Of a DNA stretch of 64,000 nucleotides, positions 17,527 through 57,261 are shown piece by piece; the stretch's first letter is position 1; the number at the start of each line of letters is the position of its first letter. This stretch comes from Oscillospiraceae bacterium (GTDB taxonomy: Bacteria; Bacillota; Clostridia; Oscillospirales; JAGBHD01): the NCBI GenBank assembly GCA_018110785.1, contig JAGBHD010000012.1:390-64389 (forward strand), read 5' to 3'. The notes under the pieces are model-generated. The model saw only the letters and a program-made list of their open reading frames with translations. It did no database searches and was not told the origin of the DNA. Made by a program: the position numbers and the translations under genes.

Positions 17527-17730
17527 CCGAAAGAGGCTTCTCTGACAAAGAGAGGAGTCTCTTTTCTTGCTAAAGACTATCTAAATGGAGCAGAATCGAG
17601 GCAAAAGTAAGTAAAAGCACACCATTTCAGTTAAACTGTAAACTCTGTTGACAGTTTTTTAAACTTTAATTCAGCCATATTAGCACCGCTTTTTTGATTA
17701 AATTATATCATAATTAACGGAATAATTAAA

Positions 17731-17901
17731 ATGAAATATCTTTCGGATGTGAAATAATGACCTACGGTCATTGTGAAATATTGCTCCTTCGCCGCAATGT
17801 GAAATGAAATTTGCCAACATTCGCGTTAGCGAATATTTCACATTTACGAAGTAAATATTTCCAGCAAAGCTATTTCACTTGCCCTTCAGGGCAAATTTCG
17901 T
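17731..17901. repeat. Array A: GTGAAAT cores (forward, then inverted) punctuating variable mini-hairpins
   Basis: GTGAAAT at 17749, 17773, 17799 (ATGAAAT at 17731). ATTTCAC at 17835, 17872 (ATTTCC 17857, ATTTCG 17895). Hairpins at 17756-17772, 17780-17798, 17819-17834, 17842-17856, 17879-17894. Confidence 0.7.
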
Positions 17902-17908
17902 TGAAAAT

Positions 17909-17947
17909 AAAAAGGCTTTTGTCGTCTGACAAAAGCCTTTTTATTTT
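17909..17947. terminator. Bidirectional intrinsic terminator (13-bp stem)
   Basis: AAAGGCTTTTGTC-GTCT-GACAAAAGCCTTT flanked by A and T runs. Lies between the convergent flippase gene and the tRNA genes. Confidence 0.85.
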
Positions 17948-17948
17948 C

Positions 17949-18023
17949 TGGTGACCCGTACGGGAATCGAACCCATGTTACCGCCGTGAAAGGGCGGTGT
18001 CTTAACCGCTTGACCAACGGGCC
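17949..18023 (-). tRNA. tRNA-Glu(UUC): tRNA-Glu (anticodon UUC), CCA encoded
   Basis: Hand fold gives acceptor GGCCCGT/ACGGGTC, anticodon arm CCGCC-CTTTCAC-GGCGG, T-arm GGTTCGATTCC. Confidence 0.9.
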
Positions 18024-18026
18024 TTA

Positions 18027-18103
18027 TGGTACCGGTAGTCGGATTTGAACCAACGACACTGCGGGTATGAACCGCATGCTCTAGCCAACTGAGCTATACC
18101 GGC
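18027..18103 (-). tRNA. tRNA-Met(CAU): tRNA with CAU anticodon (elongator Met or lysidine-modified Ile2), CCA encoded
   Basis: Hand fold gives acceptor GCCGGTA/TACCGGT, D-loop AGCTCAGTTGG, anticodon arm TGCGG-TTCATAC-CCGCA, T-arm GGTTCAAATCC. Confidence 0.85.
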
Positions 18104-42887: not shown

Positions 42888-43175
42888 ATGATAATTTTGT
42901 TTCTGACATATATTCTTAATATTGCAGACTATCTTTTTACGCTGCATTGGGTAAACAGCTATGGCATCGAAATTGAAGCAAATCCGATAGGCAGATGGCT
43001 ATTTGAGAACGATTTAGGCGGATTTGTTAAAATATTTGTTGTAGGTGGTCTTTTTCTTTTGCTCGGATATTTACTAAAGCTTCGTCCCAAAGCTAAAAAA
43101 GTAGTTTATCTATTATTCGGAGTATACAGCGCTGTAGTTATATACCACACTGTTTTAGCCTTTCAAATAGTTTGA
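42888..43175 (+). CDS. Small 3-TM membrane protein (resembles DUF5658 family from memory)
   Basis: NIADYLFT...EANPIGRWL pattern, 95 aa. Confidence 0.55.
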   Translation: MIILFLTYILNIADYLFTLHWVNSYGIEIEANPIGRWLFENDLGGFVKIFVVGGLFLLLGYLLKLRPKAKKVVYLLFGVYSAVVIYHTVLAFQIV

Positions 43176-43177
43176 TA

Positions 43178-45907
43178 TTATTTTTTGCTGAAAATTTTGG
43201 AAAACAAACTCTTGCTTTTAGGTTTTGTACGGCTTAGAGATTGCTTCATTATTGTTATCAATGCTTCGGGGGCATCGCCAAGATGATTTATAATCCACTT
43301 ATCAGCATTTTTACCATAATCAGAATAGCAATTTGCTAAAAACATTTCAAGCGGAAGTTGGTCCTCAGAGAGCATCTCTAAAAAGGTTGGATTTATGACA
43401 CAGGCTTCTTTTATTACAGAGATAAGCCTTTCCGCCGCAACAATTGCCGCTTCGGCAGAGACCTTGGTTGCATTTGTCTGTGCTCCGTATTTATCGGTTA
43501 TCTGTTTTACATACAGCCTTTTGCAATTAGGATAGGTTGTATCCATAAGCAACCTATTGTTTTTCAAAACAGAAATGCCTATATCATATAAAACAGCTTG
43601 TTCAGCGCCGATATCTTTCTGAGATAATATTGCCGTTTTTATATATTCTGCTATATTTTTACGGACATCTGCATTTATAAGCAGACTTAGATATTTAAAA
43701 AATTTCTTAACATCATTTTTCAAGGCAGCCTTTTTTAGCTGCAAGAAAGTTTTTAATATATTATACTGCTCACATCCCTCTAAATAAGACGCTGTTTTTA
43801 TGTATTCTTCCACTGTTTCTAAACCGCTATCTCCAAGAGATACATTAAACACATCAGTAAGCGAATTTGCAATTGCCGACCTTATAACATTATCCATCAA
43901 GGCTTCTGCCAGCTTTTTGTCGACCATATCAGAGCTTACCATACGTTCGGCTTCAAGCCAATCATAAAGACTTGCACGGCCTCCGTTATATGCGAATATT
44001 TGGCGAAGAGATTGAAGCACCCTTTGATAAGCAGCTTCTTCTGCATTAGCTTTTATAGAAAATAATTGTATCAATTCTTCTGTTTTTTCGAGTATTGTTT
44101 TTTTAGAGATAAATTTAAGATACTCGGAATATAGCTTCTTTTGGCCCTGCTCTTCAAGGATTAAAGCAAGAACTATATCTCGGCAAAAGCCTTGATTTTT
44201 GCAAAGCAGAGGCAAAAGCTGAGGCTCTGTTTTTCGCAAGTCTGATTTTAAAGCAGTTATTAGTTTACTTGCAAACTGCTCTTTCATTTCATAATTCTCG
44301 TTTGCAATATGGGCATTTGCTAAATCAATAAGCAAGGAAGAGAGCTTATCGCACTCGGGCAACATTTCAAAAAATGTATCGTAAAAAGACCTTTTATGCT
44401 TTAACGAAAGCAAATCATAATTATCTCGGATAAAATCAACTATTTTTTCCTGTATTGACTCGGTGCGAATTGTAAGCATCAGTTTTTCAAAAACTGCATC
44501 CTGCGTAGATTCGGGCTCATTTAAGAAATGCTCAAAAAAGAAGGATAAAATCTGCGGTTGCAAAAATCCGCCGTAAAACACCCTGCATAAATCAGCATGG
44601 ATCGTAGCGCGGGTAGCTTCATCTTCACCTATATAATTATTTTTAACAAAGGTGAAAAGCTTATCGCGCATAATATCGGTATGAATAAGCTCAAGAACTG
44701 AATTCATAGCTACTCTTTTAGCCGAATCAAGCTCACTTGGATACAGACGCGACAGTTTTGCAAGAATGTTTTTAGGAATAGCCTCATGCCGCTTAGGATA
44801 GCGCGCAAGACATTTATAAGCATTTCGGCGGTATTCTTCGCTTAATGTTTTACGATATTTTTCATATATACAAAGAAAATCATAAACCTTATTGTCATTC
44901 GGAAGAATTTCCTTTTCCTCAAACAAACCGCTTGCTCCGAGGAACAAAAACACCAAATCGGATAAGATTTTAAAATTAGTTTTTTCGAGAGCAGGGTTTT
45001 CCTTAACTGCATTATCTACAAAGGATAAAAACTCATCACGGATAGAGATATTTTTTAATAAAGAATAGAAAAACGCAATCGGTAAGCTTGAAATTTCTTC
45101 TTCAGATGGTAAACCGACAATCAAATCGGTATGAAAATCGAAAAACACACTCTTAGAGGAATGTATCTCAGGACAATGCTCTGACATTCCTTTAATTTTG
45201 GCAAGAGGATACTGCGCCGCATCTGTAATATAGCTTGAAAAGGATAGGCGCGACCTTAAATGATATGGCAGAATTGAATTTATAACAGATATAAATTCAA
45301 GGTTTTTCCCAGAAATTTCGGCATCGGGATAATCCAATTTAAAATAAACCGGCTTACCCTTAGCACAAAGCACAGCCAAAACCGCATAGATAAAGCTTTT
45401 TACCGTATCGGGGCGGTAGCGATTTAAAAGCTTTTCTGCATTTGGCGCTGATAACGGCTTATATTCTAATTCAGGATATTTATTATCTGCCGATGAAGAA
45501 GCAGACGTAATATCAAAACGCGAAATATCAGATATAAACATATCGGGATTAAAGATAGCATTATTTTTGCTATGCATAAGACTTTCTTTCTCTTCATCAC
45601 TGAGAATTAAAGTATGCGCGAGGTATGCACTTCTTTCGCCTGTATAGTCAAGCGGCAGATAGGTTATAGCAGTTTGAGTAAAATCGCCGCTTCGCAAGAC
45701 GCACTGGCTATATACCTTAGGCATTAAACCCTTTCTAACAGCCTCCGCATCATTTTTGCCAAGCTTATTTTCATATACAGCGGATAACTCACGCTCTATA
45801 AATTCCCGCGACAAACCCTCAGAATGCGCAAAGGTATCAAATCCGTCGGAACGGTTATACATACTAACCTTCGCCGGAACGCGAGAATATAAATGCTGCT
45901 TCGCCAT
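43178..45907 (-). CDS. Large (909 aa) cytoplasmic protein of unknown function, last gene of the pilus gene string
   Basis: Single uninterrupted ORF. GGGAGG lies 9 nt before the ATG. No signal peptide, TM segment or P-loop. N-terminal ~300 aa look mixed alpha/beta, and the C-terminal ~600 aa are helix-rich (K/E/L-rich). Confidence 0.8.
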   Translation of the reverse strand: MAKQHLYSRVPAKVSMYNRSDGFDTFAHSEGLSREFIERELSAVYENKLGKNDAEAVRKGLMPKVYSQCVLRSGDFTQTAITYLPLDYTGERSAYLAHTLILSDEEKESLMHSKNNAIFNPDMFISDISRFDITSASSSADNKYPELEYKPLSAPNAEKLLNRYRPDTVKSFIYAVLAVLCAKGKPVYFKLDYPDAEISGKNLEFISVINSILPYHLRSRLSFSSYITDAAQYPLAKIKGMSEHCPEIHSSKSVFFDFHTDLIVGLPSEEEISSLPIAFFYSLLKNISIRDEFLSFVDNAVKENPALEKTNFKILSDLVFLFLGASGLFEEKEILPNDNKVYDFLCIYEKYRKTLSEEYRRNAYKCLARYPKRHEAIPKNILAKLSRLYPSELDSAKRVAMNSVLELIHTDIMRDKLFTFVKNNYIGEDEATRATIHADLCRVFYGGFLQPQILSFFFEHFLNEPESTQDAVFEKLMLTIRTESIQEKIVDFIRDNYDLLSLKHKRSFYDTFFEMLPECDKLSSLLIDLANAHIANENYEMKEQFASKLITALKSDLRKTEPQLLPLLCKNQGFCRDIVLALILEEQGQKKLYSEYLKFISKKTILEKTEELIQLFSIKANAEEAAYQRVLQSLRQIFAYNGGRASLYDWLEAERMVSSDMVDKKLAEALMDNVIRSAIANSLTDVFNVSLGDSGLETVEEYIKTASYLEGCEQYNILKTFLQLKKAALKNDVKKFFKYLSLLINADVRKNIAEYIKTAILSQKDIGAEQAVLYDIGISVLKNNRLLMDTTYPNCKRLYVKQITDKYGAQTNATKVSAEAAIVAAERLISVIKEACVINPTFLEMLSEDQLPLEMFLANCYSDYGKNADKWIINHLGDAPEALITIMKQSLSRTKPKSKSLFSKIFSKK

Positions 45908-45964
45908 ATACTATTTCCTCCCTGATATTTCACATTGCAAATTCGTAATTATTTATAGCTGAGA

Positions 45965-45999
45965 GAGAAACGATATTAAGAGCTTTAATATCGTTTCTC
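45965..45999 (-). other. Perfect 15-bp-stem hairpin without U-tract between the pilB-distal small ORF and the 909-aa gene
   Basis: GAGAAACGATATTAA-GAGCT-TTAATATCGTTTCTC. Confidence 0.7.
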
Positions 46000-46016
46000 G
46001 AACAACTGTTTGGGAT

Positions 46017-46181
46017 TTATATAGATAAAATTACAATAAGAGCAACAGCTATGCTTATTGCAAAAGTACCAATAATCAATCCCCATGCAAGACGGTTGTC
46101 AACATACTTTGCATTTTTGCTTTCTGTTTCATTAACCTTTTCTTCTACCGCTTCCTTGGTTATTGTATTAGTTTCGCTCAT
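46017..46181 (-). CDS. Small (54 aa) tail-anchored membrane protein
   Basis: An AAAGGAG inside the track ORF is 8 nt upstream of the second ATG (46181). Acidic N-terminus, C-terminal TM WGLIIGTFAISIAVALIVILSI. Confidence 0.5.
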   Translation of the reverse strand: MSETNTITKEAVEEKVNETESKNAKYVDNRLAWGLIIGTFAISIAVALIVILSI

Positions 46182-46198
46182 ATCAACATCTCCTTTCA

Positions 46199-47887
46199 TT
46201 ATTCAACATTTAATGTCATAAGTTCTTGAAGGCTGGTAATGCCTTTGAATACCAAACTGCGGCAGGATTTCCAAAGAGGAGTCATACCGTTTTCAACCGC
46301 AAGCTTGCGAAGAACATCAAGATTTCTCTCATTCATTGCGGCATTCTTCATAGCATCGTTCATATACATAACCTCATGAACGGCTATTCTTCCTTTATAA
46401 CCCGTATTATTGCAGAACTGACAGCCCTGAGGTCTTGCAATACTTATCGGCTCGGTAATACCGAGGATTTCCATCTCTTTGGCGTTAGTTCTTCCTTTCT
46501 TTTTACACGCGGGGCAAAGGCGTTTTACCAAGCGCTGTGCGATAACACCAACAAGCGCATCAGCAACCAAATAGTTATCAACGCCCATATCTTCTAAGCG
46601 GAGAATTGCTCCCGGCGCATCGTTTGTATGAAGGGTGCTGAAAACAATATGTCCTGTAATAGCGGAACGTACCGCTATTTCCGCTGTTTCTTCATCTCGT
46701 ATCTCGCCTATCATAATAATATCGGGGTCCTGACGGAGAATAGAACGAAGAGCCGCCGCAAAGGTCATATTTGCTTTGGTATTAACCTGAGTTTGGTTTA
46801 TGCCCGGCATCGTAAGCTCGACGGGGTCTTCTACGGTAACAATATTAACCGTTGGGTTATTTACCTCTTTTAAGAAGGAATAAAGGGTTGTTGACTTACC
46901 GCAGCCCGTAGGACCTGTTAGCAAAATAATACCATGCGGACGGGCAAGCATTTTATCTACAACAACATTTTCAGCCTCGGTAAAACCAAGATCCGCTCTT
47001 GTAAAATGGAAAGAGGTTTTATCAAGTACACGGATAACAAATTTTTCTCCGAATACCGTTGGCAAGGTTGAAACACGGAAATCAAACTCTTTGCCGCCGA
47101 TAATCATATTGATACGACCGTCTTGCGGAACTCTGCGCTCTGCGATATTAAGACCTGACATAATTTTTAATCGAGCGCATATAGCCGAATAGGCTTCAAT
47201 CGGAAATTCTGCACGATTCTGCAAATCCCCGTCGATACGATATCTAACCTTAACAATCTTTTCAAAAGGCTCTATATGAATATCGCTGGCTCTATAGGGA
47301 ATAGCCTCTTTTATAATAGAATCTACTAATCTAACGGCAGGATTATTGATAACATCGCTATCGCTTTCTGCGCTCTGAGCACCTTTTTGCAAAAATCTAA
47401 GCTGTTTTTCTGCCTTTTCGGTATTTAGGTCGTTGAGAGCTTCTGTTGTTGAAATAACCGCCGCTATTGAATCTACATATCTATCTATCTGAACAGGCGG
47501 GACTAATATGTAATCGCATTTACCGCCAAACTGAACAGACAGTGCCGATATCGTATGGCTATCAAGAGGTTTTGCGGTTGCAACGAGAAGCAAACCGTTT
47601 TTATCAAAGCTAATAGGAATTATCTTATGCTTCTTCATAAAATCGAAGGTAAATAGATCAAAAAGCTCTTTATCTATATCGAGCATATCGATCTCGACAT
47701 AGGGCATACAGTAATACTCTGCTAATGCCTCCAGCTCCATTATTTCAGTTACAACTTCTTTAGCCAAAAGATAGTCGCGCACACCAACATTAAGTCGATT
47801 ACATTCAGCAAGAATTTCATCAACATCTTTTCGCTTAACTAACTTTTTATACACATAAAACTGCAATAATTCATAGTTTGTATTCAC
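46199..47887 (-). CDS. pilB: Type IV pilus assembly ATPase (PilB/GspE family)
   Basis: T2SSE N-terminal domain, Walker A GPTGCGKST, DPDIIMIGEIRD, tetracysteine CPAC...CQFC. Confidence 0.93.
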   Translation of the reverse strand: MNTNYELLQFYVYKKLVKRKDVDEILAECNRLNVGVRDYLLAKEVVTEIMELEALAEYYCMPYVEIDMLDIDKELFDLFTFDFMKKHKIIPISFDKNGLLLVATAKPLDSHTISALSVQFGGKCDYILVPPVQIDRYVDSIAAVISTTEALNDLNTEKAEKQLRFLQKGAQSAESDSDVINNPAVRLVDSIIKEAIPYRASDIHIEPFEKIVKVRYRIDGDLQNRAEFPIEAYSAICARLKIMSGLNIAERRVPQDGRINMIIGGKEFDFRVSTLPTVFGEKFVIRVLDKTSFHFTRADLGFTEAENVVVDKMLARPHGIILLTGPTGCGKSTTLYSFLKEVNNPTVNIVTVEDPVELTMPGINQTQVNTKANMTFAAALRSILRQDPDIIMIGEIRDEETAEIAVRSAITGHIVFSTLHTNDAPGAILRLEDMGVDNYLVADALVGVIAQRLVKRLCPACKKKGRTNAKEMEILGITEPISIARPQGCQFCNNTGYKGRIAVHEVMYMNDAMKNAAMNERNLDVLRKLAVENGMTPLWKSCRSLVFKGITSLQELMTLNVE

Positions 47888-47902: not shown

Positions 47903-49117
47903 TTATACTTGAAGTCCATTCATAATGGAAAGCATTGGCGAATATATCGCCACAAAAAGCGTTCCGATAACTGCGCCCATAATACAAAGCATAATAGGCT
48001 GAATTTTATTAGTCATTGAATTAAGAGAGGTTTCAACCTGTGCATCAAAAAATTTGCAAGAGCGCATCAAAACATCGTCAAGTTCATTTGTTTTTTCACC
48101 AATCGTTACCATTTGAATCATCATCGGAGGGAATAGCTTATAGCTTTCGAAAGCATTTGTAAGCGACATACCACCTCGGACAGCCTCGGTTGCCTGATGA
48201 AATTTTTTGGTAAGATATCTGTTACCAATAACAATTTCGGTTGCATACATTGCTTCGTTTAGATCCATACCGCTGGAGAGCAAAAGCGCAAAGGCACGGG
48301 CAAAACGCGAGGTTATCATATTTATCTGTACTGTTTTTATAATGGGGATATTCAGCTTTAACACATCTAATATGTATTTTCCGACTTCAGTACTCATAAA
48401 TAAAACTAATACTAAGCCTATAACAACGATAACTGCCAATATATAAAGCCAATTCGCCAACATGAAATCTGAAATAAAGAATATAGCCGCCGTAAGCCCC
48501 GTTACCTCAACATTTAATTCATCTAAGGTTTCTCGGAATGTAGGAACTACAAACAGCATCATCAATACGACAATTGCAACCGTCATACAGGCTAAAAGCG
48601 CGGGATATGATAAAGCGCTTTTTACTTTTCTTTTAAGCCCCGTATCGGTTTCATAATAATCGGCGAGTGCGGTTAAAACTATATCAAGCTTTCCGCTCAA
48701 CTCTCCGATATTTATCATACTGCGGAAAAAATCGGGAAACACTTTTGCATGCTTATTAAGGGCTTCATAAAGCATCATCCCTGATTGAACGTCTTCATAT
48801 ATTACAGTAATTATATTTTTAAAATATCTCGAAAATGGTTGAACCTTTAAAATATCCAAACAATCGAGAATCGGAATATGAGTATTGAGCATTATTGCAA
48901 ACTGACGGCAAAAGGTATTAAGCTCTGCAATAGGAACCTTTCCTGTACCAAGAGTGAAAAATGCTGATGGGGTTGCACCCGAATATGGTCTTGCGGATAC
49001 AAGAAACAAGCTTTGTCTGGCAAGCTGCTGGGCTAAATCATCTTCATTATTGGCAATAAAAATACCTTTGATTTTCTTATTTTCCAAATTTACCGCCGTA
49101 TATTTGAATTTCTGCAA
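47903..49117 (-). CDS. pilC: Type IV pilus platform protein (PilC/GspF family)
   Basis: Duplicated GspF domain, 3 TM segments, 404 aa. Confidence 0.92.
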   Translation of the reverse strand: MQKFKYTAVNLENKKIKGIFIANNEDDLAQQLARQSLFLVSARPYSGATPSAFFTLGTGKVPIAELNTFCRQFAIMLNTHIPILDCLDILKVQPFSRYFKNIITVIYEDVQSGMMLYEALNKHAKVFPDFFRSMINIGELSGKLDIVLTALADYYETDTGLKRKVKSALSYPALLACMTVAIVVLMMLFVVPTFRETLDELNVEVTGLTAAIFFISDFMLANWLYILAVIVVIGLVLVLFMSTEVGKYILDVLKLNIPIIKTVQINMITSRFARAFALLLSSGMDLNEAMYATEIVIGNRYLTKKFHQATEAVRGGMSLTNAFESYKLFPPMMIQMVTIGEKTNELDDVLMRSCKFFDAQVETSLNSMTNKIQPIMLCIMGAVIGTLFVAIYSPMLSIMNGLQV

Positions 49118-49135
49118 AATTATTTGCTCCTTTCT

Positions 49136-49942
49136 TTACATCAGCGCGCCGCGCACAAACTCGATATACCACGAAACAATGATATTCCCGAAAAACATTG
49201 CTATAAGCGTTGCTACTGCGAGATAAGGCCCAAAGGGATATTCTTTTTGCTTTTCGGCATCTGATATTCTATTTAAAATTATCATAACAATCGAGCCTAC
49301 AACGGAAGCTATTAAAATTGCCAAAATGAATTTTTGCCAACCTAACAGCAAACCCGCCGCTGCCGCATATTTAACATCACCAAAGCCAAGTCCTTCTTTT
49401 TTGAGAACTAATAAAGCTCCATAATAAACACCAAGGAAAATAAGTCCGCCTGAAACTGCGCCTATAATATGATCGTACCATACTGTTTTTGTATCGAAAA
49501 ACATTGCGACAATACCGCCGAGGGCTACAATAAGCGTAAAGCGGTTGAAGATAAGCATATGCTCTAAATCAATAAAGAATATGCAAATAAGCACCGATGA
49601 AACAATTGCCATAGCGCAGGCATAAATAATGCTTATATTCCAAAAAATCGCAATAGAAAGCAACCAAAAAACTGCATTAGCAAGCTCTACTATCATATAG
49701 CGCGGAGATATTTTAGTTTTGCATTTTCTGCATTTTCCGCCAAGGAAAAGATAGGAAAGGACAGGTATATTATCATACCATTTGAGGCTGTAATCGCAGG
49801 CTGTACAATGCGAGGGAGGAGATGCAAGACTCATATTATTCGGAAGCCGATATATTACAACATTGAGAAAGCTACCGACGCACAATCCTAAAATTCCGCC
49901 AATAATATATATACATAGCTTTAAAAATAATTCTTCAGTCAT
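49136..49942 (-). CDS. pilD: Prepilin peptidase (A24 family)
   Basis: CTACDYSLKWYDNIPVLSYLFLGGKCRKC zinc motif, catalytic Asp contexts FFIDLEH and GFGDVKY. Confidence 0.92.
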   Translation of the reverse strand: MTEELFLKLCIYIIGGILGLCVGSFLNVVIYRLPNNMSLASPPSHCTACDYSLKWYDNIPVLSYLFLGGKCRKCKTKISPRYMIVELANAVFWLLSIAIFWNISIIYACAMAIVSSVLICIFFIDLEHMLIFNRFTLIVALGGIVAMFFDTKTVWYDHIIGAVSGGLIFLGVYYGALLVLKKEGLGFGDVKYAAAAGLLLGWQKFILAILIASVVGSIVMIILNRISDAEKQKEYPFGPYLAVATLIAMFFGNIIVSWYIEFVRGALM

Positions 49943-49959
49943 TATATTCTCATTTCAAA

Positions 49960-51156
49960 TTAAAAATTGTTCATTTTATTATATAGGCTTGTATGAAGAG
50001 CACCAAACAGCTCAAGTTCATCTGCTTGTTCATATAGCGGGTTGCTGATACCATCTGAAACAAGCGCCTCAAAAATAACCTTGTTTTCTTCTTTTTCCTC
50101 ATTAAGCTTATCCAAAAGGAATGCATATTCGCTTGGCATATTAACATAAACCGTATCTATAGCTCCTAAAGAGGTTATAGAGGGATTATTTGCAAGAAGG
50201 TCTAATGTCCATTTAACGAAAATTCTGAAATTCTCATATAAAAAGCCCTCTCGGTCGGTTGGAAGTTCTCTTTGCATAAACTTAGGAAGCTTTCGCGCAG
50301 CTTTTTTACCATCATATGTATTTTCTGATGGGAAAATCGGAGCATCTTCGGAATTATAAGAATTTTCTTCCTTTGCAACTTCTATCGCATCGGCATCGGT
50401 CATAATTTCTTCGCCCATCATCGTTATTTGCTTTGCTTTTGCCTTTTCTTTAGCATTAAGAACAAGCAATTCGGCGCTTGTATGGTCGAATAAGAGATCC
50501 TCTGCGGCAAGTCGGGATTTATACAAAATCGAATGTCCAAAGGGAAGAGAATAATATCCTACTGTTCTTCCTTTGTTAACGAAAGCATACTGCGCTTCAT
50601 TTTCCTTAATGTCAAGCAAGAGAAAATTTGCAGCTTTCAGCTTTTGATTTAAAGCAATAGCCGCATTAGCCGAAGCATTGGAAGCAAAGGTTATGCTTTG
50701 AACATCAATTTCATTCTCCGAGCAAACTTTTCCTATTTTTTCTAATAGATCTTTTCTGATACCAACTACTCCATAAATTGAAAACTGCTTATTTTGGGTT
50801 AAAACATATGTTTTATATTTAAGGTCGTTTCTGTTTTTATATATCGCACCGAAAGCAAGATCTAAAGATTGCTCCATAGCTCTTTTATTAAGGGCGGGTA
50901 TCTTTATTGTATCGGTTAAAAAAACATGGTTAGGCAAAATAAGCGAAACCTTGGAAAACTGAGCTACGGGATTTTTCAGCTTATAAGCCTTTATTCCCCT
51001 ATCGAGTTTTTGAAAAAACTCATCGTCAAAGGGACGCGCACGATAGTTTCCAAGCATAGTATCCTTTTGTCCGATACCATTCGATATGTCGAAAAAGCGA
51101 ACGGTTTCACTATCCGTATTTATTGCAATTGCCGCCGACATCAGCGATTCATACAT
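49960..51156 (-). CDS. PilM-like pilus assembly protein (divergent actin-like ATPase fold), tentative
   Basis: Segments resembling PilM phosphate-binding strands (VSLILPNHVFL...IPAL, LLLDIKENEAQYAFVNKG). Position is between the pilins and pilD. Confidence 0.5.
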   Translation of the reverse strand: MYESLMSAAIAINTDSETVRFFDISNGIGQKDTMLGNYRARPFDDEFFQKLDRGIKAYKLKNPVAQFSKVSLILPNHVFLTDTIKIPALNKRAMEQSLDLAFGAIYKNRNDLKYKTYVLTQNKQFSIYGVVGIRKDLLEKIGKVCSENEIDVQSITFASNASANAAIALNQKLKAANFLLLDIKENEAQYAFVNKGRTVGYYSLPFGHSILYKSRLAAEDLLFDHTSAELLVLNAKEKAKAKQITMMGEEIMTDADAIEVAKEENSYNSEDAPIFPSENTYDGKKAARKLPKFMQRELPTDREGFLYENFRIFVKWTLDLLANNPSITSLGAIDTVYVNMPSEYAFLLDKLNEEKEENKVIFEALVSDGISNPLYEQADELELFGALHTSLYNKMNNF

Positions 51157-51171
51157 TTCTATTTTCTCCTC

Positions 51172-51531
51172 TCAGCTTTTGCTCCATTTTTCAACGGTAT
51201 ATTTTCCATCTTCCATAGTAAGAACAACCGTAAGCAGAAGCTTTCCATCTTCGTCTTTAACTGTAAGATTCAAATCCTCTTCAAGAATTTCATAATCGGG
51301 ATAGGCTGAAATCCAAGAGCCATCACCCCCGACATTATCACAAAAGCTCTTGCCTATTTGCTCCGCTATAATCTCTTCTTTTAATGATTTTTCGATTTCT
51401 CCTCTTTTCTCGCTAAGCAAAAGCGATACTGTTAACAATACAATCGAAAATGAAAAGACTACCAAAAGCATTACAAGCGCCATTTCCATTGCCGCACCCT
51501 TGCGGCATTTTTTTATACTTTTAAGTTTCAT
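51172..51531 (-). CDS. Pilin-like protein with non-canonical prepilin motif
   Basis: KG/AAMEMALVMLLVV: Gly then a hydrophobic helix, but Glu at +4 rather than +5. Confidence 0.55.
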   Translation of the reverse strand: MKLKSIKKCRKGAAMEMALVMLLVVFSFSIVLLTVSLLLSEKRGEIEKSLKEEIIAEQIGKSFCDNVGGDGSWISAYPDYEILEEDLNLTVKDEDGKLLLTVVLTMEDGKYTVEKWSKS

Positions 51532-51962
51532 TCGCTTCCACCCCCAGCTTCAATTTTATAAGGGTAGGTAAAGCTTTGTATTGTATCGCCGTTTTTGTCA
51601 ACAGCGTTATATTCAAATGAAGGGGCAGAAATATCGGAATAATCTACAATTATGGTAACTTTATAGTCGTCGGTTTCCATAATATATACACCGTTTGATT
51701 TCTTTTTATAGTCTGCCGTTTTTTTAAGAGTGTTTGCAAAATTTTCTTCGCTATCTGAGAATCTGAAACACTCTATAGCGTTTTCGGCGGAATTTGCCGC
51801 CTCTAAGCTAACAATTGTTTTGTTTTCAACATTAGCGGAAATTAGCGCCGTTGTTGTTACAGCTACGCTGACAATACTTATAACCGCTATAGCTATAACT
51901 GTTTCCGCTATTGTAATTCCTCGGAGATGAGCAGGTAATTTTTTAACCCTCTTATTTTTCAT
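51528..51962 (-). CDS. Minor pilin / pseudopilin
   Basis: RG/ITIAETVIAIAVISIV class III signal with Glu+5. Confidence 0.75.
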   Translation of the reverse strand: MKNKRVKKLPAHLRGITIAETVIAIAVISIVSVAVTTTALISANVENKTIVSLEAANSAENAIECFRFSDSEENFANTLKKTADYKKKSNGVYIMETDDYKVTIIVDYSDISAPSFEYNAVDKNGDTIQSFTYPYKIEAGGGSE

Positions 51963-52480
51963 TCGCTCTCCCCCGTTTCTACAACTTCAAAGGTTTCTCC
52001 GATATGAGATTTTAAGCAAAAAATATATTCTTTTTCTTTTTCGTTTATCAAATAGGTGGCTTTGCATAAAAACATTTCGTTTTCTGCATTTGTTAATTCT
52101 TCAAACTCAAGCTTAGTAAGATATTCAACATCTGCCGACATAGATTTTCCGTCAGGCAGGGATGCTATAAATTTATTACCGCTTTTATATGCCGAATACC
52201 GTTCCTCTCCCTTTTCAGCAACAAGCGAGGAGGAATTTGCCGAAATTTCGGCATCATAAGACATTAAAGCATTAGTCCAATCTTCTAAAAGAGATTCTGT
52301 AAGGGTTAGCTCTTGTATTGCATTTAAGCGCTGCGCCGCCATTTTACTACGCGCGCTTACTAAGGAAGAAAAAGAAACAACCGATAAAGAAATAATGGTA
52401 ACCAGAGCTAAAACGATACATAGCTCTGCAATAGAAAAGCCTTTTTTCATCTTATCTATAGATAACCTTTTAAGTCCCAT
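51959..52480 (-). CDS. Minor pilin / pseudopilin
   Basis: KKG/FSIAELCIVLALVTII class III signal with Glu+5. Confidence 0.75.
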   Translation of the reverse strand: MGLKRLSIDKMKKGFSIAELCIVLALVTIISLSVVSFSSLVSARSKMAAQRLNAIQELTLTESLLEDWTNALMSYDAEISANSSSLVAEKGEERYSAYKSGNKFIASLPDGKSMSADVEYLTKLEFEELTNAENEMFLCKATYLINEKEKEYIFCLKSHIGETFEVVETGESE

Positions 52481-52510
52481 CGGTCTATTCCCCCTTATTT
52501 AGTTATTTAA

Positions 52511-52556
52511 CAAAGAACACCGCAACACCCCAAAAGGAGTTGCGGTGTTTTGTTCT
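52511..52556 (-). terminator. Probable partial terminator (attenuator) after the major pilin gene
   Basis: Arms around ACACCGCAA(C)/TTGCGGTGT with extensions. On the minus strand it is followed by TTCTTTGTT. Confidence 0.6.
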
Positions 52557-52590
52557 TCCGAGTGTTTATACTAACTCATAAACAGGATTA

Positions 52591-53013
52591 TTAAGCGAAT
52601 GTTGCTCCTGTAGCAGGTGCAGTTTCGCCGGTTTTCTCAACAATGTAGTAGTCATACTCAGCATAACCTTCTACCGAAGCATCAGTATTTTCAACGTCAG
52701 CGCAGCCAGCAGCAGTAGCAGCGTTGTCAGCAGAATCATAGATGGTGTCGTCCATCTGAGCATCTTTAACTGCAACATACTTGTCGTCAACCTTGATAAC
52801 GAAATCCTGAAGAGCGGTTTCGCCTTCAACATAATCAACTGCAGCTACATACATTTTGTAAGCAGCGTTAGCTTCCTGAACAACCTTGGAATCCTGAGCC
52901 TTTTTAATGATACCGGAGAAGGTAGGAATTAAAACAGCAGCAAGAATTGCAATAACAGCAATAACGATTACGAGCTCTACGATAGTAAAGCCTTTACGAG
53001 AATTCTTTTTCAT
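52591..53013 (-). CDS. pilA: Major type IV pilin (141 aa precursor)
   Basis: Start at ATG 53013 behind TAAGGAGAGA. RKG/FTIVELVIVIAVIAILAAVLIP prepilin signal with Glu+5. Confidence 0.88.
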   Translation of the reverse strand: MKKNSRKGFTIVELVIVIAVIAILAAVLIPTFSGIIKKAQDSKVVQEANAAYKMYVAAVDYVEGETALQDFVIKVDDKYVAVKDAQMDDTIYDSADNAATAAGCADVENTDASVEGYAEYDYYIVEKTGETAPATGATFA

Positions 53014-53184
53014 AATTGAATCTCTCCTTAATAATTTAAATTTTATAAATATGTTTAAGACTTTAACCGTTAGAATAATAAACCGCACTCGGAACAATTT
53101 ATAATCCTAAAACGGTTTTAATTTATATTCCCCGCGGCTTCTCTTTACGAAAAGCCGCGGAAACTAACAAAAGGTAATGCGAAT

Positions 53185-54708
53185 TTATTCTACAGATTTA
53201 GCCTCGCCGTTAACAACGATTGTTCCGCTGTGTACGAAGGTATGATCTACAGCTTCACGAACATAACCTGTTCCATAAACAACAGTTTTACCAACCGTAC
53301 TAGCATCATCATAATTGAACACTACATCTTTGCCAATAGATCTAGCCGCTAATATAACATCAGGTACATTTTCGGTATTTGCGGAAACAAGCTTAACATT
53401 TATAAGCTGGCAATCGGTATCGTGATTATATGCATCATGCTTGCTATAATCTCCGATGACCAAAGGAGCATAAGGAATCTGACAACCTGAACCCCAATAA
53501 GGAATATCAGCAGCAGACTGATTATAGTTGAAATATTCACAAGATGTATTAAGTCCGGGGCTATGGCTTTTGCCTGTACCAACAGGTCCGGTATCTCCAT
53601 CTGTAGTTTTAATTGTTGTATTCTCTACTACAGCATGACCGGAACGCAAGAACAGACCCCAACCAGAACCTTCGAGCTCACAATCTGTAATATGAACATC
53701 GGAAGGTACGTTTACTAAAACTGCACAGCTATCAGCCTTTAATTCGGAATTAGATACATCTATACGGATATTGTCTGAAAATCTATTGTTTGTTGCAATA
53801 ACATATGGACCTGCACAATTGATAACACAGTCTTCAATTACAACCTCAGCCGCATCACCGGAAGGATAAATACCGGAACAATCGGCTGTATATTCAACAT
53901 CTCTTAAAATAAGATGACCGCCTGTTTCTACACCTATAGCAGTATAAGCTCCGCCGGGAGTGTCGTCCATAGCAATATCAATTTTACCATTAACCAATTC
54001 TAATGTTCCGTTTGTAGGAACTGTAAGATCATAATAATATCCATTAGAATGAGGTGTTTTACTAACAAGCGTACCACCGTTTAAGTCGATAGTAATATCT
54101 TTTCCTGTTCCACCATTCATGGTCATATAGTTACCAAGGAAATATAATCCACCTGCGCCTAAATCAAGAATTTCATTTTTGGGCAACTGCAGAATAGCTT
54201 TATCTTCTGAATTTTGCACAGTTTCAAGCAATGCCGCACGTAATGTTTGACCTTCAGCAGGGGTAACTACCTGAATTGCATATTCGCCTGCAAGGTCTGC
54301 CCAGTCGTTAGACGGGGTTGTAACAGTTTTATACTTCTTTTTCAGGTCGTTAGGATATGTAACAGCACCTGTCGCAGGGTCTTCTTCGTTTTTCTCCCAA
54401 AGCATAACCCTGTTGTCTGCTCCTGTCCAATAATAAACATTATTGGAATCAAGCGGAGTAAAGTCTGTAATACCATTCTCTTCAAGAATATCCTTTGCTT
54501 CAGCAACCTGAGCGGGTTTTCCATCAACTGCTTCGTCAGCTGAAAGAATAACGTTCATCTGCTGAACTATCTGCATATCTGCAGACATGTTGGCTTTTTT
54601 GATGAGACTCGAAAAGGTAGGGATTAACACTGCTGCTAAAATAGCTATAACAGCAATAACGATTACGAGCTCAACAATGGTAAAGCCGCGTTTAAATGTT
54701 TTTCTCAT
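53185..54708 (-). CDS. Large pilin (507 aa) with C-terminal beta-helix-like repeat domain
   Basis: KRG/FTIVELVIVIAVIAILAAVLIP. Start set at the second ATG (54708), 8 nt after GGAGG. The C-terminal half has ~22-25-aa periodic units (GTLELVNGKIDI, GHLILRDVEYTA, AEVVIEDCVINC, IRIDVSNSELKA, VHITDCELEG, AVVENTTIKT). Confidence 0.85.
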   Translation of the reverse strand: MRKTFKRGFTIVELVIVIAVIAILAAVLIPTFSSLIKKANMSADMQIVQQMNVILSADEAVDGKPAQVAEAKDILEENGITDFTPLDSNNVYYWTGADNRVMLWEKNEEDPATGAVTYPNDLKKKYKTVTTPSNDWADLAGEYAIQVVTPAEGQTLRAALLETVQNSEDKAILQLPKNEILDLGAGGLYFLGNYMTMNGGTGKDITIDLNGGTLVSKTPHSNGYYYDLTVPTNGTLELVNGKIDIAMDDTPGGAYTAIGVETGGHLILRDVEYTADCSGIYPSGDAAEVVIEDCVINCAGPYVIATNNRFSDNIRIDVSNSELKADSCAVLVNVPSDVHITDCELEGSGWGLFLRSGHAVVENTTIKTTDGDTGPVGTGKSHSPGLNTSCEYFNYNQSAADIPYWGSGCQIPYAPLVIGDYSKHDAYNHDTDCQLINVKLVSANTENVPDVILAARSIGKDVVFNYDDASTVGKTVVYGTGYVREAVDHTFVHSGTIVVNGEAKSVE

Positions 54709-54818
54709 CGTCATGTCCTCCTAATAATTAATTAAGGCAGAGCGGGAAGCTGATGCACGCCCTTTAATACTCAATCTGAGCAATTAATGCTATCCGCCCA
54801 ACTATAATTCTTGTTAAT

Positions 54819-55300: not shown

Positions 55301-56566
55301 TTATTTGCAGTTATTTACTGCCGATTTTATATCGGCATACATATAAAGTGAACCTGAAACTAAAATTGGCGTACCGCTGAGTTTGGCGGATTTTATTGCC
55401 GCTTTTACTCCGTCTTCTATAGAATCAAAGCTTTCGGCATCTACCTTAAAGGCTTCTTTATATTCCTTAGAATCAAGAGCGCGGGGATTTTCAGGAGTTA
55501 CTGTAAACACTTTTTTTGCTATAGAGGAGAGTTTTTCTGCGATAAACTGATATTCCTTATCTCTCATAACGCCGCTTATTACATAGAGCTTTTGATTCCC
55601 GAAAATTGTTTTCGCGCTTTCTACAGCGGCTTCTACCCCTTCGCGGTTATGTCCTCCATCGTAATAAATCAGCGGATTATCGCATATTTTTTCCATTCTT
55701 GCCGCCCAGCTCACTTTCCCGAGAGCATTTCTGATATTATCTTCCGAAACCTTGAAGCCTATATTTTTTAATATTTCAGCCGCTTCTATCGCGACTATCG
55801 CATTAAAGGGCTGATATGTGCCTATGAGCGAGAGCTTTATATCCTTATAATTTTTATATGAAAGAATAGTTCCTTTTGGGGTTACAGATACATTTTTTAA
55901 AGCATTTCTATCGGGCTTTAAGAAATTACAACCAAGCTTTTCGGCTTCTTCTCTTATTACCTTTTCAGCCGCTATATCTACACCTCCAAAGATAACGGGG
56001 GCTTTATTTTTTATAATGCCCGCTTTTTCGGCGGCTATTTTTTCGACGGTATCTCCTAAATAATCCGTATGGTCTAAGGACACTCCCGTTATAACCGAGA
56101 GCAAGGTGTTTTCTACAGCATTGGTTGCATCATATCTTCCGCCCATACCCGCTTCTAAGATAACTACATCGCATTCTTCGCGCTTATAATACTCCAAAGC
56201 GATAGCTGTTATAAGCTCAAACTCGGTTGGGTGGTCTGCCATTTTATCGGCTTTTTCTGCTACAAGCTCGGTAATTTCAGCTAACGCTTCATCGGGAATA
56301 TTTTCTTTTCCAATACGGATACGCTCATTAAAGGAAAGAATAAAGGGAGAGGTATAAAGCCCTACCTTATATCCCGCTTCAGATAAAATCTCGCAGAGCA
56401 TCGAGGAAACCGAGCCTTTACCGTTAGTTCCTGCAACCTGAACAAATTTTAAGCTTTTTTCGGGATTTTCCAGCCTTAAAAGCAGCTCGGTTATTCTTGA
56501 AAGCCCGGGGCGGCTTCCCAAGGAAGAAATTTTATGGATATATTCTAAAGCTTCGTTATAATTCAT
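55301..56566 (-). CDS. folC: Folylpolyglutamate synthase / dihydrofolate synthase
   Basis: MNYNEALEYI..., VAGTNGKGS P-loop. True start is ATG 56566 (ATGA overlap with the folT stop). The track ORF has a spurious 120-aa extension. Confidence 0.93.
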   Translation of the reverse strand: MNYNEALEYIHKISSLGSRPGLSRITELLLRLENPEKSLKFVQVAGTNGKGSVSSMLCEILSEAGYKVGLYTSPFILSFNERIRIGKENIPDEALAEITELVAEKADKMADHPTEFELITAIALEYYKREECDVVILEAGMGGRYDATNAVENTLLSVITGVSLDHTDYLGDTVEKIAAEKAGIIKNKAPVIFGGVDIAAEKVIREEAEKLGCNFLKPDRNALKNVSVTPKGTILSYKNYKDIKLSLIGTYQPFNAIVAIEAAEILKNIGFKVSEDNIRNALGKVSWAARMEKICDNPLIYYDGGHNREGVEAAVESAKTIFGNQKLYVISGVMRDKEYQFIAEKLSSIAKKVFTVTPENPRALDSKEYKEAFKVDAESFDSIEDGVKAAIKSAKLSGTPILVSGSLYMYADIKSAVNNCK

Positions 56567-57060
56567 TTCTTTATAATCCTTTTGCCAAGCGCCGTATAAA
56601 CAAGATATACAAGATAGCTTTCTACGGCGGAGATCGCGATATATGTTACAAGCCTTGTTAAAACTACGGGGAAACCTCCGCCGTAGTAATAAAGAAGTCC
56701 TACGGTTTTTATACCTACAGAGCAGATAAAATGAGAAGCTATAACCGATATAAAAATACCTTTTTTGCCCGACACATATTTTTTTATAAGCCAAGGGAAA
56801 AGTCCCATAAGAGCACAGCCGAGAGTTATTATAGGATTTATTGTATATCCAACGAGCAAACAGCCTACTAAATCGGCAATAAGACCTGCGCTCATTCCCG
56901 CTACAGGCCCTAAAAGAAGACTGCAAAGGATTATCGGCAGACTTTCAAAGCTTATTCTGAGCGTTACCAATGTAAATGCGAAAACCTTACCCAGAATAAT
57001 TGATAATGCGGCGCATAAAGCCGCAATACAAATTAACATAATCTTTTTTTGTTTTCCCAA
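56563..57060 (-). CDS. folT: ECF transporter S component for folate (FolT)
   Basis: Six-TM protein of about 165 aa behind a THF riboswitch and ahead of folC. Start is TTG 57060 (8 nt after GGAGGGGAGG) or ATG 57039. Confidence 0.8.
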   Translation of the reverse strand: MGKQKKIMLICIAALCAALSIILGKVFAFTLVTLRISFESLPIILCSLLLGPVAGMSAGLIADLVGCLLVGYTINPIITLGCALMGLFPWLIKKYVSGKKGIFISVIASHFICSVGIKTVGLLYYYGGGFPVVLTRLVTYIAISAVESYLVYLVYTALGKRIIKK

Positions 57061-57121
57061 AATAAAAACCTCCCCTCCGCTTTTATCAGCAGAAGAAAGG
57101 ATATATTTCCTTTGAACGGCT

Positions 57122-57219
57122 GAAGCGGGATGCGACCACTGCACCGCAGGGTTTCCCCTTTCGCCCGAACGACAACTCCCCGTTCATTCGATACTTAACG
57201 CGCACTTGGTCTACTCTTC
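57122..57219 (-). promoter_or_regulatory. THF (tetrahydrofolate) riboswitch
   Basis: Minus strand reads GAAGAGUAGACC..GCGCGUUAAGU..GAAUGAACGGGGAGUUGUCGUUC..GGGCGAAAGG..CUGCGGUGCAGUGGUCGCAUCCCGCUUC. This matches the conserved blocks AGUAG, GCGUUAAGU, GAAUGGGAUGUCGUC, GCGGUG, GCAUCCGCUC as I remember the E. siraeum aptamer. Confidence 0.85.
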
Positions 57220-57261
57220 AAATAATTTTTATCGGAAGGGCTTTAAAAACCCTTCCGATTT

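Follow-up and report, generated by a model that had tools for sequence, protein, structure and literature searches.

What is the role of a large protein whose gene closes a type IV pilus operon? The question is raised by a 64-kb stretch of DNA (hereafter the window, meaning all 64,000 nucleotides analyzed) from an Oscillospiraceae bacterium, in which an open reading frame (ORF) of 909 amino acids (aa) lies at the downstream end of the genes for type IV pilus assembly. The identical database protein, derived from a metagenome-assembled genome (MAG), is annotated as 'hypothetical protein'. How the type IV pili of Gram-positive anaerobes are regulated is poorly understood, and we are aware of no comparable accessory factor. 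We found that the protein belongs by its sequence to the GAP1 family and that its gene follows pilB in most of the species-level genomes compared. We propose, with a probability of about 45%, that it is a membrane-peripheral cytoplasmic adaptor or regulator of pilus motor ATPases.

The 909-aa protein is a divergent GAP1-family member by sequence

The ORF starts with ATG, encodes a protein of approximately 104 kDa (pI approximately 6.4) and is the longest in the window, as a first-pass annotation made from the letters alone had stated; the runner-up is PilB with 562 aa. The same annotation called the protein an orphan, pointed to a likeness of its N-terminus to GAP1-type domains and proposed a Pfam profile search. 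The likeness turned out to be right and the orphan status wrong. With 43.3 bits (cut-off 24, E = 4.7e-11, residues 1–115), the N-terminus passed the Pfam GAP1-N2 model (PF20013). Full-length homologues, mostly 880–950 aa in length, formed 304 clusters at 90% clustering, and approximately 80 clusters were found at 50% identity. GAP1-M (PF20014) scored 21.0 bits on the window protein alone, below its cut-off of 24; at the family level, all 22 relatives tested matched both GAP1-N2 and GAP1-M (GAP1-M at E < 0.01, best E = 3.9e-9), and most homologues carry a precomputed PF20014 match. Membership in the GAP1 family was already implicit in precomputed Pfam annotations.

The definition of the GAP1 family goes back to Kaur, Burroughs, Iyer and Aravind in 2020 (eLife), where a conflict system was proposed (PMC7159879). 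We compared the window protein with canonical members of the family. An exhaustive hidden Markov model search with the N-terminal 290 residues retrieved the protein's own family at 209 bits or more (approximately 80 clusters) and, after a gap, canonical GAP1-N2 proteins at approximately 110–73 bits (E = 1e-24 to 1e-15). Profile–profile alignment with canonical GAP1 using hhalign gave a probability of 99.8% (E = 1.4e-29) over query residues 1–671, reaching into the helical region, at 19% identity. Because the Pfam GAP1-N2 match and the profile–profile comparison agree, we classed the 909-aa protein on its sequence as a divergent but genuine GAP1-family member of the GAP1-N2 subtype. Five canonical proteins scored 135–152 bits on GAP1-N2 and 70–104 bits on GAP1-M in the same scan, and GAP1-C gave no Pfam match even in these five. 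Besides GAP1-N2 and GAP1-M, the only Pfam match of the window protein at E ≤ 1 was UPF0228, at chance level; no TPR, PilZ or GGDEF-EAL domain, the types known from PilB regulators, was found in that scan. The NCBIfam scan returned nothing meaningful, and no PADLOC model matched at E ≤ 1.

The gene is the terminal gene of the pilus operon

Sampling one genome per species gave 71 loci, which are labelled mostly Faecousia, Acutalibacteraceae, Oscillospiraceae, Ruminococcus and unclassified Clostridia and Eubacteriales. Adjacency of the homologues to pilB or pilC, a check set in advance, was strongly positive: in 60 of the 71 genomes the GAP1-like gene lies directly 3' of pilB on the same strand, and a basal clade described below has it in front of a PilT-family ATPase gene. 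The gap to pilB is 13–76 nucleotides (nt) in 54 loci, and the upstream order in pilB-linked loci is the gene for a conserved 398-aa protein, pilD, pilC and pilB. This linkage is kept although the GAP1-like proteins are only 30–53% identical; PilB identity among the linked loci is 69–88%. Therefore, the homologues are linked to pilus genes, and the family matched is not one unrelated to pili or defense. Conservation ends on the downstream side, where no gene is shared by more than 6 of 42 loci, and the GAP1-like gene is therefore the terminal gene of the pilus operon. A reciprocal scan of metagenomes, meant to ask whether every close PilB has the gene behind it, retrieved mostly distant PilBs (38–61% identical), 79 in number, none of which was accompanied by a GAP1-like gene; these serve as negative controls only.

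Canonical GAP1-N2 genes, used as controls, stand directly after DO-GTPase2 with a 4-nt overlap, in a neighborhood with tubulin and VWA genes. The first-pass annotation had seen no GTPase gene beside the 909-aa ORF, and tblastn with two DO-GTPases likewise matched nothing in the window and nothing in 72 related loci. The canonical VWA protein and two unnamed companions also gave no match in these sequences, Tubulin_2 not being among the queries. The FNIII companion was not among the conserved neighbors, which are pil genes only, and no FNIII-specific search was made. No GTPase candidate is conserved near the GAP1-like gene in the loci compared.

We then considered how the gene is inherited. In a neighbor-joining tree, the pilB-linked state is spread over the whole family, and pairwise distances of the GAP1-like protein correlate at 0.85–0.93 with those of PilB, PilC, PilD and the 398-aa protein, most tightly with the last (r = 0.93). 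Because the distances co-vary with those of the operon proteins and the linkage is spread over the tree, the gene is inherited vertically with the pilus operon and is unlike a mobile element in its behavior. The mobile, patchy neighborhood that is a trait of canonical GAP1 was not observed; the gene keeps a fixed place as the last of the operon.

A basal clade pairs the gene with a PilT-type ATPase

The basal clade (28–31% identical) comprises L053:10001-14530, L063 and L068. Here, a gene for a 343-aa ATPase starts 10 nt after the GAP1-like gene, and the ATPase passes the PilT/PilU model TIGR01420 with 416 bits (cut-off 319). Other pil genes are absent within approximately 10 kb. As a separate observation, the clade carries a compact module of the GAP1-like gene, the PilT/PilU-family ATPase and a Crp/Fnr-type regulator that binds cyclic nucleoside monophosphates, in that order.

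The nearest outgroup, P0183 (L156:2265-11099), is a 1032-aa GAP1-N2 protein and is possibly an evolutionary intermediate between the canonical and the pilus-linked forms; the gene two places ahead of it encodes a borderline DO-GTPase2 (26.7 bits, cut-off 27). Three other close outgroups (P0182, P0196 and P0197) stand alone among housekeeping genes. In the most parsimonious history, a GAP1 gene parted from its GTPase and came to be attached to pilus motor ATPases.

Predicted structure and conserved motifs

The full-length AlphaFold model (predicted local distance difference test score (pLDDT) 91.9, predicted template-modelling score (pTM) 0.72) has an alpha/beta part at residues 1–285 and approximately 600 all-helical residues, with an uninterrupted alpha-solenoid at 287–894. 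This is the layout that the first-pass annotation had described, namely a mixed alpha/beta region of approximately 300 aa followed by approximately 600 helical ones. It had also reported neither a Walker A motif nor a transmembrane helix, and we found none of either in the protein; the highest 19-residue Kyte–Doolittle mean was 1.56, which is not sufficiently hydrophobic for a membrane-spanning segment.

In two AlphaFold 2 (AF2) models, the strands and helices of residues 2–111 are predicted to follow the longin order. The GAP1-N2 motifs of this region are QH[FL]YSRVPA, DGFDTFAHS and DYTGERSAY. R9 and R92 are invariant in alignments A1, A3 and A4; in alignment A2 (120 sequences), R92 is invariant and R9 is at least 90% conserved. 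Conservation peaks at residues 1–90 and 330–480, is highest of all in the block of residues 1–30 (0.84) and is lowest at 600–900.

Foldseek with the full-length model returned weak HEAT-type solenoids (SF3b155, CAND1, importin-beta, PP2A-A and AP-2/AP-3; E approximately 4e-4, template-modelling (TM) score ≤ 0.2). Because this search was dominated by the solenoid and was uninformative on the N-terminus, residues 1–290 were modelled separately with AF2 (pLDDT 88, pTM 0.89). Among PDB entries, this model came closest to three folliculin-complex chains and to DENND10, which filled the first four ranks (E = 1.4e-4 to 5.9e-4; probability 0.99 for DENND10), with alignments to DENN proteins of 323–431 columns, TM scores of at most 0.34 and root-mean-square deviations of 11–35 Å. 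Lower ranks went to TagF, to the longin domain of Lst4 and to PAS/LOV domains. The GAP1 N+M half is thus predicted to resemble a longin plus DENN module, as a resemblance of fold and not as membership of that family. The DENN, folliculin and SMCR8 families gave no Pfam match at E ≤ 1, and the N-terminal profile found nothing among all PDB sequences at E ≤ 10. The PDB sequence matches of the full-length profile were TAL repeats, which we set aside as chance-level.

A MinD-like tail at the C-terminus

After the fast-evolving solenoid, conservation returns at the extreme C-terminus. The family consensus of the tail is K-P-x-x-G-S-[FL]-[FLW]-x-K-L-F-G-K-K, and the model places the last approximately 10 residues in disorder (pLDDT < 50 from about residue 899). 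The membrane-targeting sequence of Escherichia coli MinD is KGFLKRLFGG (PMC5471200), and the part G-S-[FL]-[FLW]-x-K-L-F-G-K-K resembles it closely in both sequence and C-terminal location. Only this short motif is common to the two proteins, which are otherwise unrelated. The hydrophobic moment of the tail is modest (0.28–0.44). The tail suggests peripheral membrane attachment of the GAP1-like protein. Two canonical GAP1 tails that were inspected (P0201 and P0209) lack the MinD-like motif.

Proposed role and the explanations that compete with it

The reading to which we give about 45% runs as follows. The MinD-like tail would hold the protein against the membrane on its cytoplasmic side. Its conserved N-terminal module, which is longin/DENN-like, would dock on PilB (on PilT in the basal clade) or on a motor-bound factor, so that the motor ATPase would take the place of the DO-GTPase of canonical systems. 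The solenoid, of which the first half is conserved and the second is variable, may scaffold further contacts, and the timing or location of PilB or PilT engagement at the pilus base would be controlled in this way. Longin-domain proteins of this type act directly on NTPases, using residues within that domain (PMC12290439, PMC3521125). R9 and R92 are candidate NTPase contacts if they are compared, loosely, with the arginine fingers of longin-type GTPase-activating proteins (PMC12290439).

Several observations weigh against this role. In seven species (L016, L026, L028, L029, L033, L040 and L057), the order is ackA-greA-[GAP1-like]-pepF, with no pil genes within 4–10 kb. In the sister genome L067 the order is ackA-greA-[whole pil operon]-[GAP1-like]-pepF; because it holds the operon at exactly that spot, the pil genes were cleanly removed or moved in the seven species, which kept the GAP1-like gene alone and so form a natural series of deletions or relocations. 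Their copies of the gene are full length, retain nearly all invariant residues and are as close to the outgroups as the pil-linked ones (identity 0.30 for both overall; 0.38 versus 0.39 in the N+M region). Because they are intact and equally conserved, they stay under selection with no pilB adjacent, and such species either encode a pilus ATPase elsewhere in the genome or use the protein in a pilus-independent function. The seven species therefore speak against a strictly PilB-dedicated role, and it is chiefly because of them that we put the probability below one half. In addition, PilB and PilT belong to the RecA-like hexameric ATPases and not to the TRAFAC GTPases, and therefore the canonical docking mode of GAP1 cannot simply be transferred to them. 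The mirror-tree analysis carried no PilB-specific signal; all operon proteins correlated at 0.85–0.93 and the partial correlation for PilB was low, so that the attempt to single out PilB as the partner failed for want of discrimination. A PilB with 70% identity (L075, on a 2.6-kb contig) is not followed by a GAP1-like gene. The DENN fold matches are modest (E approximately 1e-4, TM score ≤ 0.34) and have no sequence support, and all genomes compared are metagenome-derived, from uncultured organisms and mostly MAGs.

The retention of the gene in the seven pil-less species, with conservation equal to that of linked copies, would be expected of a scaffold or regulator with a general role at the envelope and with its true partner encoded elsewhere, for example a GTPase that is not linked or some other NTPase. 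Co-transcription with the pilus genes would then be mere co-regulation, and pili would be one client or would only share conditions of expression. The solitary outgroups P0182, P0196 and P0197 fit such a scaffold. Pil-linked and pil-less copies alike are most conserved in the N-terminal module, which points to a partner that persists, and proteins of its longin/DENN-like fold class are known to act on small GTPases (PMC3521125). However, adjacency to two paralogous ATPases, PilB and PilT, in separate clades and at distances of 10–76 nt, is hard to explain unless there is a functional link with this ATPase family, and no candidate GTPase is conserved nearby; we consider the general scaffold unlikely. 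If the protein were instead a core subunit of the basal body that substitutes for PilM/N/O-type parts rather than a regulator, this would suit the lack of a recognizable PilN or PilO, the 398-aa protein at the 'PilM position' that matches no known family, the tight co-divergence with that protein (r = 0.93) and the predicted membrane-binding tail. Its survival after the loss of pilus genes and its pairing with PilT alone in another clade would then be unexpected, and the correlation with the 398-aa protein may reflect similar evolutionary rates only. A core subunit therefore seems to us very improbable.

We also weighed whether the gene is a conflict (defense) module descended from the GTPase-centered GAP1-N2 systems, which would watch over the pilus, often used by phages as a receptor, or sense via its motor and mount a protective response on infection. 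The parent family was proposed as a conflict system (PMC7159879), the C-terminal 350 residues evolve fast (conservation 0.34–0.42), and the nearest outgroup has kept a borderline DO-GTPase2 two genes ahead of it. However, neither the protein nor its conserved neighbors include an effector domain (nuclease, pore former, peptidase or TIR), and PADLOC gave no match. No companion genes of the FNIII, tubulin, VWA, HSP70 or kinase types turned up, with the limits on the FNIII and Tubulin_2 searches given above. The fixed chromosomal position, the co-divergence with the operon and a GC content like that of the surroundings are also unlike a patchy, mobile system, and we regard a defense module as improbable.

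A wider interpretation is a tentative conjecture, which we would sooner doubt than assert: a GAP1-family protein with a longin/DENN-like module and a HEAT solenoid may have exchanged its TRAFAC double GTPase for PilB/PilT, giving rise to a so far unrecognized class of membrane-tethered pilus motor regulators in gut and rumen Clostridia. By extension, GAP1 N+M would be a prokaryotic counterpart of eukaryotic DENN that serves different P-loop NTPases.

Comparison with known systems and the literature

Canonical GAP1 is encoded right after a DO-GTPase, or fused to it (PMC7159879); the pair is translationally coupled, and GAP1 presumably binds the GTPase. Like it, the window protein has homologous GAP1-N2 and GAP1-M domains and, behind them, a helical region (hhalign 99.8%), with the common motifs Q-x-x-Y-[ST]-R, G-[FY]-D-T-[FI]-A-x-S-x-G-L and D-[YF]-T-G-x-R-S. 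Both are roughly 900–1100 aa long, have an adjoining NTPase gene and are predicted to act near the membrane. The window protein differs in its lower scores (43 versus 135–152 bits for GAP1-N2 and 21 versus 70–104 for GAP1-M), in having PilB or PilT rather than a DO-GTPase as the neighboring NTPase, in its vertical inheritance in an operon as opposed to a mobile neighborhood, and in its MinD-like tail, which P0201 and P0209 lack.

With the DENN-module proteins of eukaryotes (folliculin/FNIP and DENND10), which combine longin, DENN and helical d-DENN parts, the likeness lies in the predicted fold of residues 1–290, the longin order and the helices that follow; direct action on an NTPase, as in DENN proteins (PMC3521125, PMC12290439), would be a further one. 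In contrast, no sequence similarity was detected and TM scores stayed at or below 0.34. The likeness may reflect homology or convergence; the partners of DENN proteins are small Ras-like GTPases, none of which is linked to the GAP1-like gene. The SgmX protein of Myxococcus xanthus, to which the first-pass annotation had pointed, remains a fair comparison as a functional analogy only: it is a large cytoplasmic helical-repeat protein that reportedly promotes pili through PilB (PMC7519303, PMC7668184). The two proteins are unrelated in sequence, and the Pfam scan showed no TPR in the GAP1-like one. TPR-rich SgmX is encoded outside the pil operon and depends on MglA, a recruiting GTPase, and on FrzS, whereas here a longin-like module is fused to a repeat scaffold and no MglA-like GTPase is linked.

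A weaker match of the N-terminal fold was to TagF (PDB 6iz8 and 2qnu; E = 0.02–0.03, probability 0.9, approximately 110–127 columns). TagF is a cytoplasmic post-translational repressor of type VI secretion, a bacterial envelope nanomachine. Unlike the GAP1-like protein, it is a small single module (approximately 220 aa) with no solenoid and serves a different machine; the similarity is weak.

Among searchable papers, we found none linking GAP1 domains to pili and none combining type IV pili, Oscillospiraceae and pilB. The paper that defined GAP1 does not mention pili, longin or DENN (PMC7159879), and its domain names were found in no other paper. The link from GAP1 to type IV pilus ATPases is therefore new relative to the literature searched. 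The family has so far been known from one comparative-genomics paper, and the loci described here show that it is not tied to DO-GTPases and conflict systems and suggest that its partner NTPase is swappable. A 104-kDa protein encoded directly after pilB in approximately 60 species of gut and rumen Clostridia is a testable candidate for the control or positioning of the motor. If confirmed, the exchange of the partner NTPase and the predicted longin–DENN likeness of the N-terminal half would give insight into how NTPase-regulator modules evolve and would provide the first link of GAP1 to a defined cellular machine.

Features of the locus and the rest of the window

The features of the locus are collected in Table 1. 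The window is chromosomal and rich in housekeeping genes, and the GC content of the GAP1-like gene is similar to that of its flanks.

Table 1. Coordinates of the GAP1-like gene, its protein regions and the neighboring features in the window.
Feature	Position	Strand	Evidence
GAP1-like gene, terminal conserved gene of the type IV pilus operon	43178..45907	-	ORF list, 304 homologues, locus comparison
Residues 1-115, GAP1-N2, longin-like fold b-b-a-b-b-b-a	45563..45907	-	PF20013, two AF2 models
Residues 141-285, GAP1-M, alpha/beta domain	45053..45487	-	PF20014 21 bits, 22/22 relatives
Residues 287-560, conserved alpha-solenoid part, invariant HTDxMRDKLF and RVFYGGF	44228..45049	-	pLDDT mostly > 94, conservation 0.6-0.74
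Residues 561-894, fast-evolving alpha-solenoid part, HEAT/ARM-like	43226..44227	-	conservation 0.34-0.56
Residues 895-909, disordered basic/hydrophobic tail KPKSKSLFSKIFSKK, candidate membrane-targeting amphipathic helix	43181..43225	-	tail alignment; pLDDT < 50
Ribosome-binding site GGGAGG, ATG 9 nt further on	45917..45922	-	sequence
15-bp hairpin, no U-tract, genome-specific	45965..45999	-	minimum free energy -27.9 kcal/mol, z = -4.3
Small ORF, 60 aa (54 aa from internal ATG at 46181), C-terminal hydrophobic anchor	46017..46199	-	ORF list; genome-specific insertion
PilB-type pilus extension ATPase, MshEN + T2SSE, conserved upstream neighbor	46199..47887	-	Pfam T2SSE 2.5e-135; NCBIfam TIGR02538
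PilC	47903-49117	-	
Prepilin peptidase (PilD)	49136-49942	-	
Conserved 398-aa protein, no family match	49960-51156	-	
Three small pilin-like proteins	51172-52480	-	
Pilin, 168 aa	52591-53097	-	
Pilin-like protein, 509 aa	53185-54714	-	
Convergent DUF5658 membrane protein, 95 aa	42888..43175	+	Pfam PF18902

What the first-pass annotation had described around the gene was seen again. The ORF list and Pfam agree with pilB and a 54-aa tail-anchored protein upstream on the same strand, the gene has a good ribosome-binding site of its own, and the gap of 109 nt in front of it (45908-46016) contains the hairpin, which is followed by UCUCUCAGC rather than by a U-tract. The start of the small ORF overlaps the pilB stop (TAATG). 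The 54-aa ORF and the hairpin do not belong to the conserved arrangement. The ORF gave no tblastn match in the other 71 loci; the gaps of other pilB-linked loci are mostly 13–76 nt with nothing inserted, and the longer ones contain no comparable small ORF. Because both elements are confined to this genome, we rejected them as parts of the system. They look like a genome-specific insertion between pilB and the GAP1-like gene, which could attenuate read-through into the latter.

At the other end, the GAP1-like stop (43178-43180) lies 2 nt from the stop of the convergent DUF5658 gene (43173-43175), and there is no terminator-like site between the two, both as the first-pass annotation had it. The sole terminator-like sites for either transcript, at 43531-43558 (+) and 42730-42709 (-), are inside or beyond the opposite gene; therefore, the two transcripts probably overlap as antisense RNAs. 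DUF5658 was considered as a conserved partner and rejected, as it occurs only in the window and in the close relatives L001, L002, L003 and L005.

The rest of the pilus operon spans 47903..54714 (-), and its gene order is repeated in related loci. TIGR02538 was the best NCBIfam match of the window PilB (567 bits), which is under the equivalog cut-off. The 398-aa protein is conserved in approximately 55 related operons at 34–58% identity and at the position expected of PilM. It has no match in Pfam, NCBIfam or PDB sequences, and we dropped the name 'PilM' for it, as no profile library backs it. No PilN or PilO gene is recognizable in the operon of the window, and a search for a cyclic di-GMP riboswitch controlling the operon found none. 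The 509-aa pilin-like protein at the head of the operon is unusually large; it has a prepilin N-methylation motif and is encoded beside the pilin of normal size.

Two observations concern other parts of the window. A pair of Gut-1 RNA motifs in opposite orientation (17729-17810 + and 17830-17903 -) lies beside tRNA-Glu and tRNA-Met, in a segment (17729-18103) that is otherwise ORF-free and low in GC. A tetrahydrofolate riboswitch at 57121-57220 (-), scoring 78 bits against a cut-off of 36, lies approximately 195 nt upstream of a FolC-like gene of the Mur-ligase family (55301-56926).

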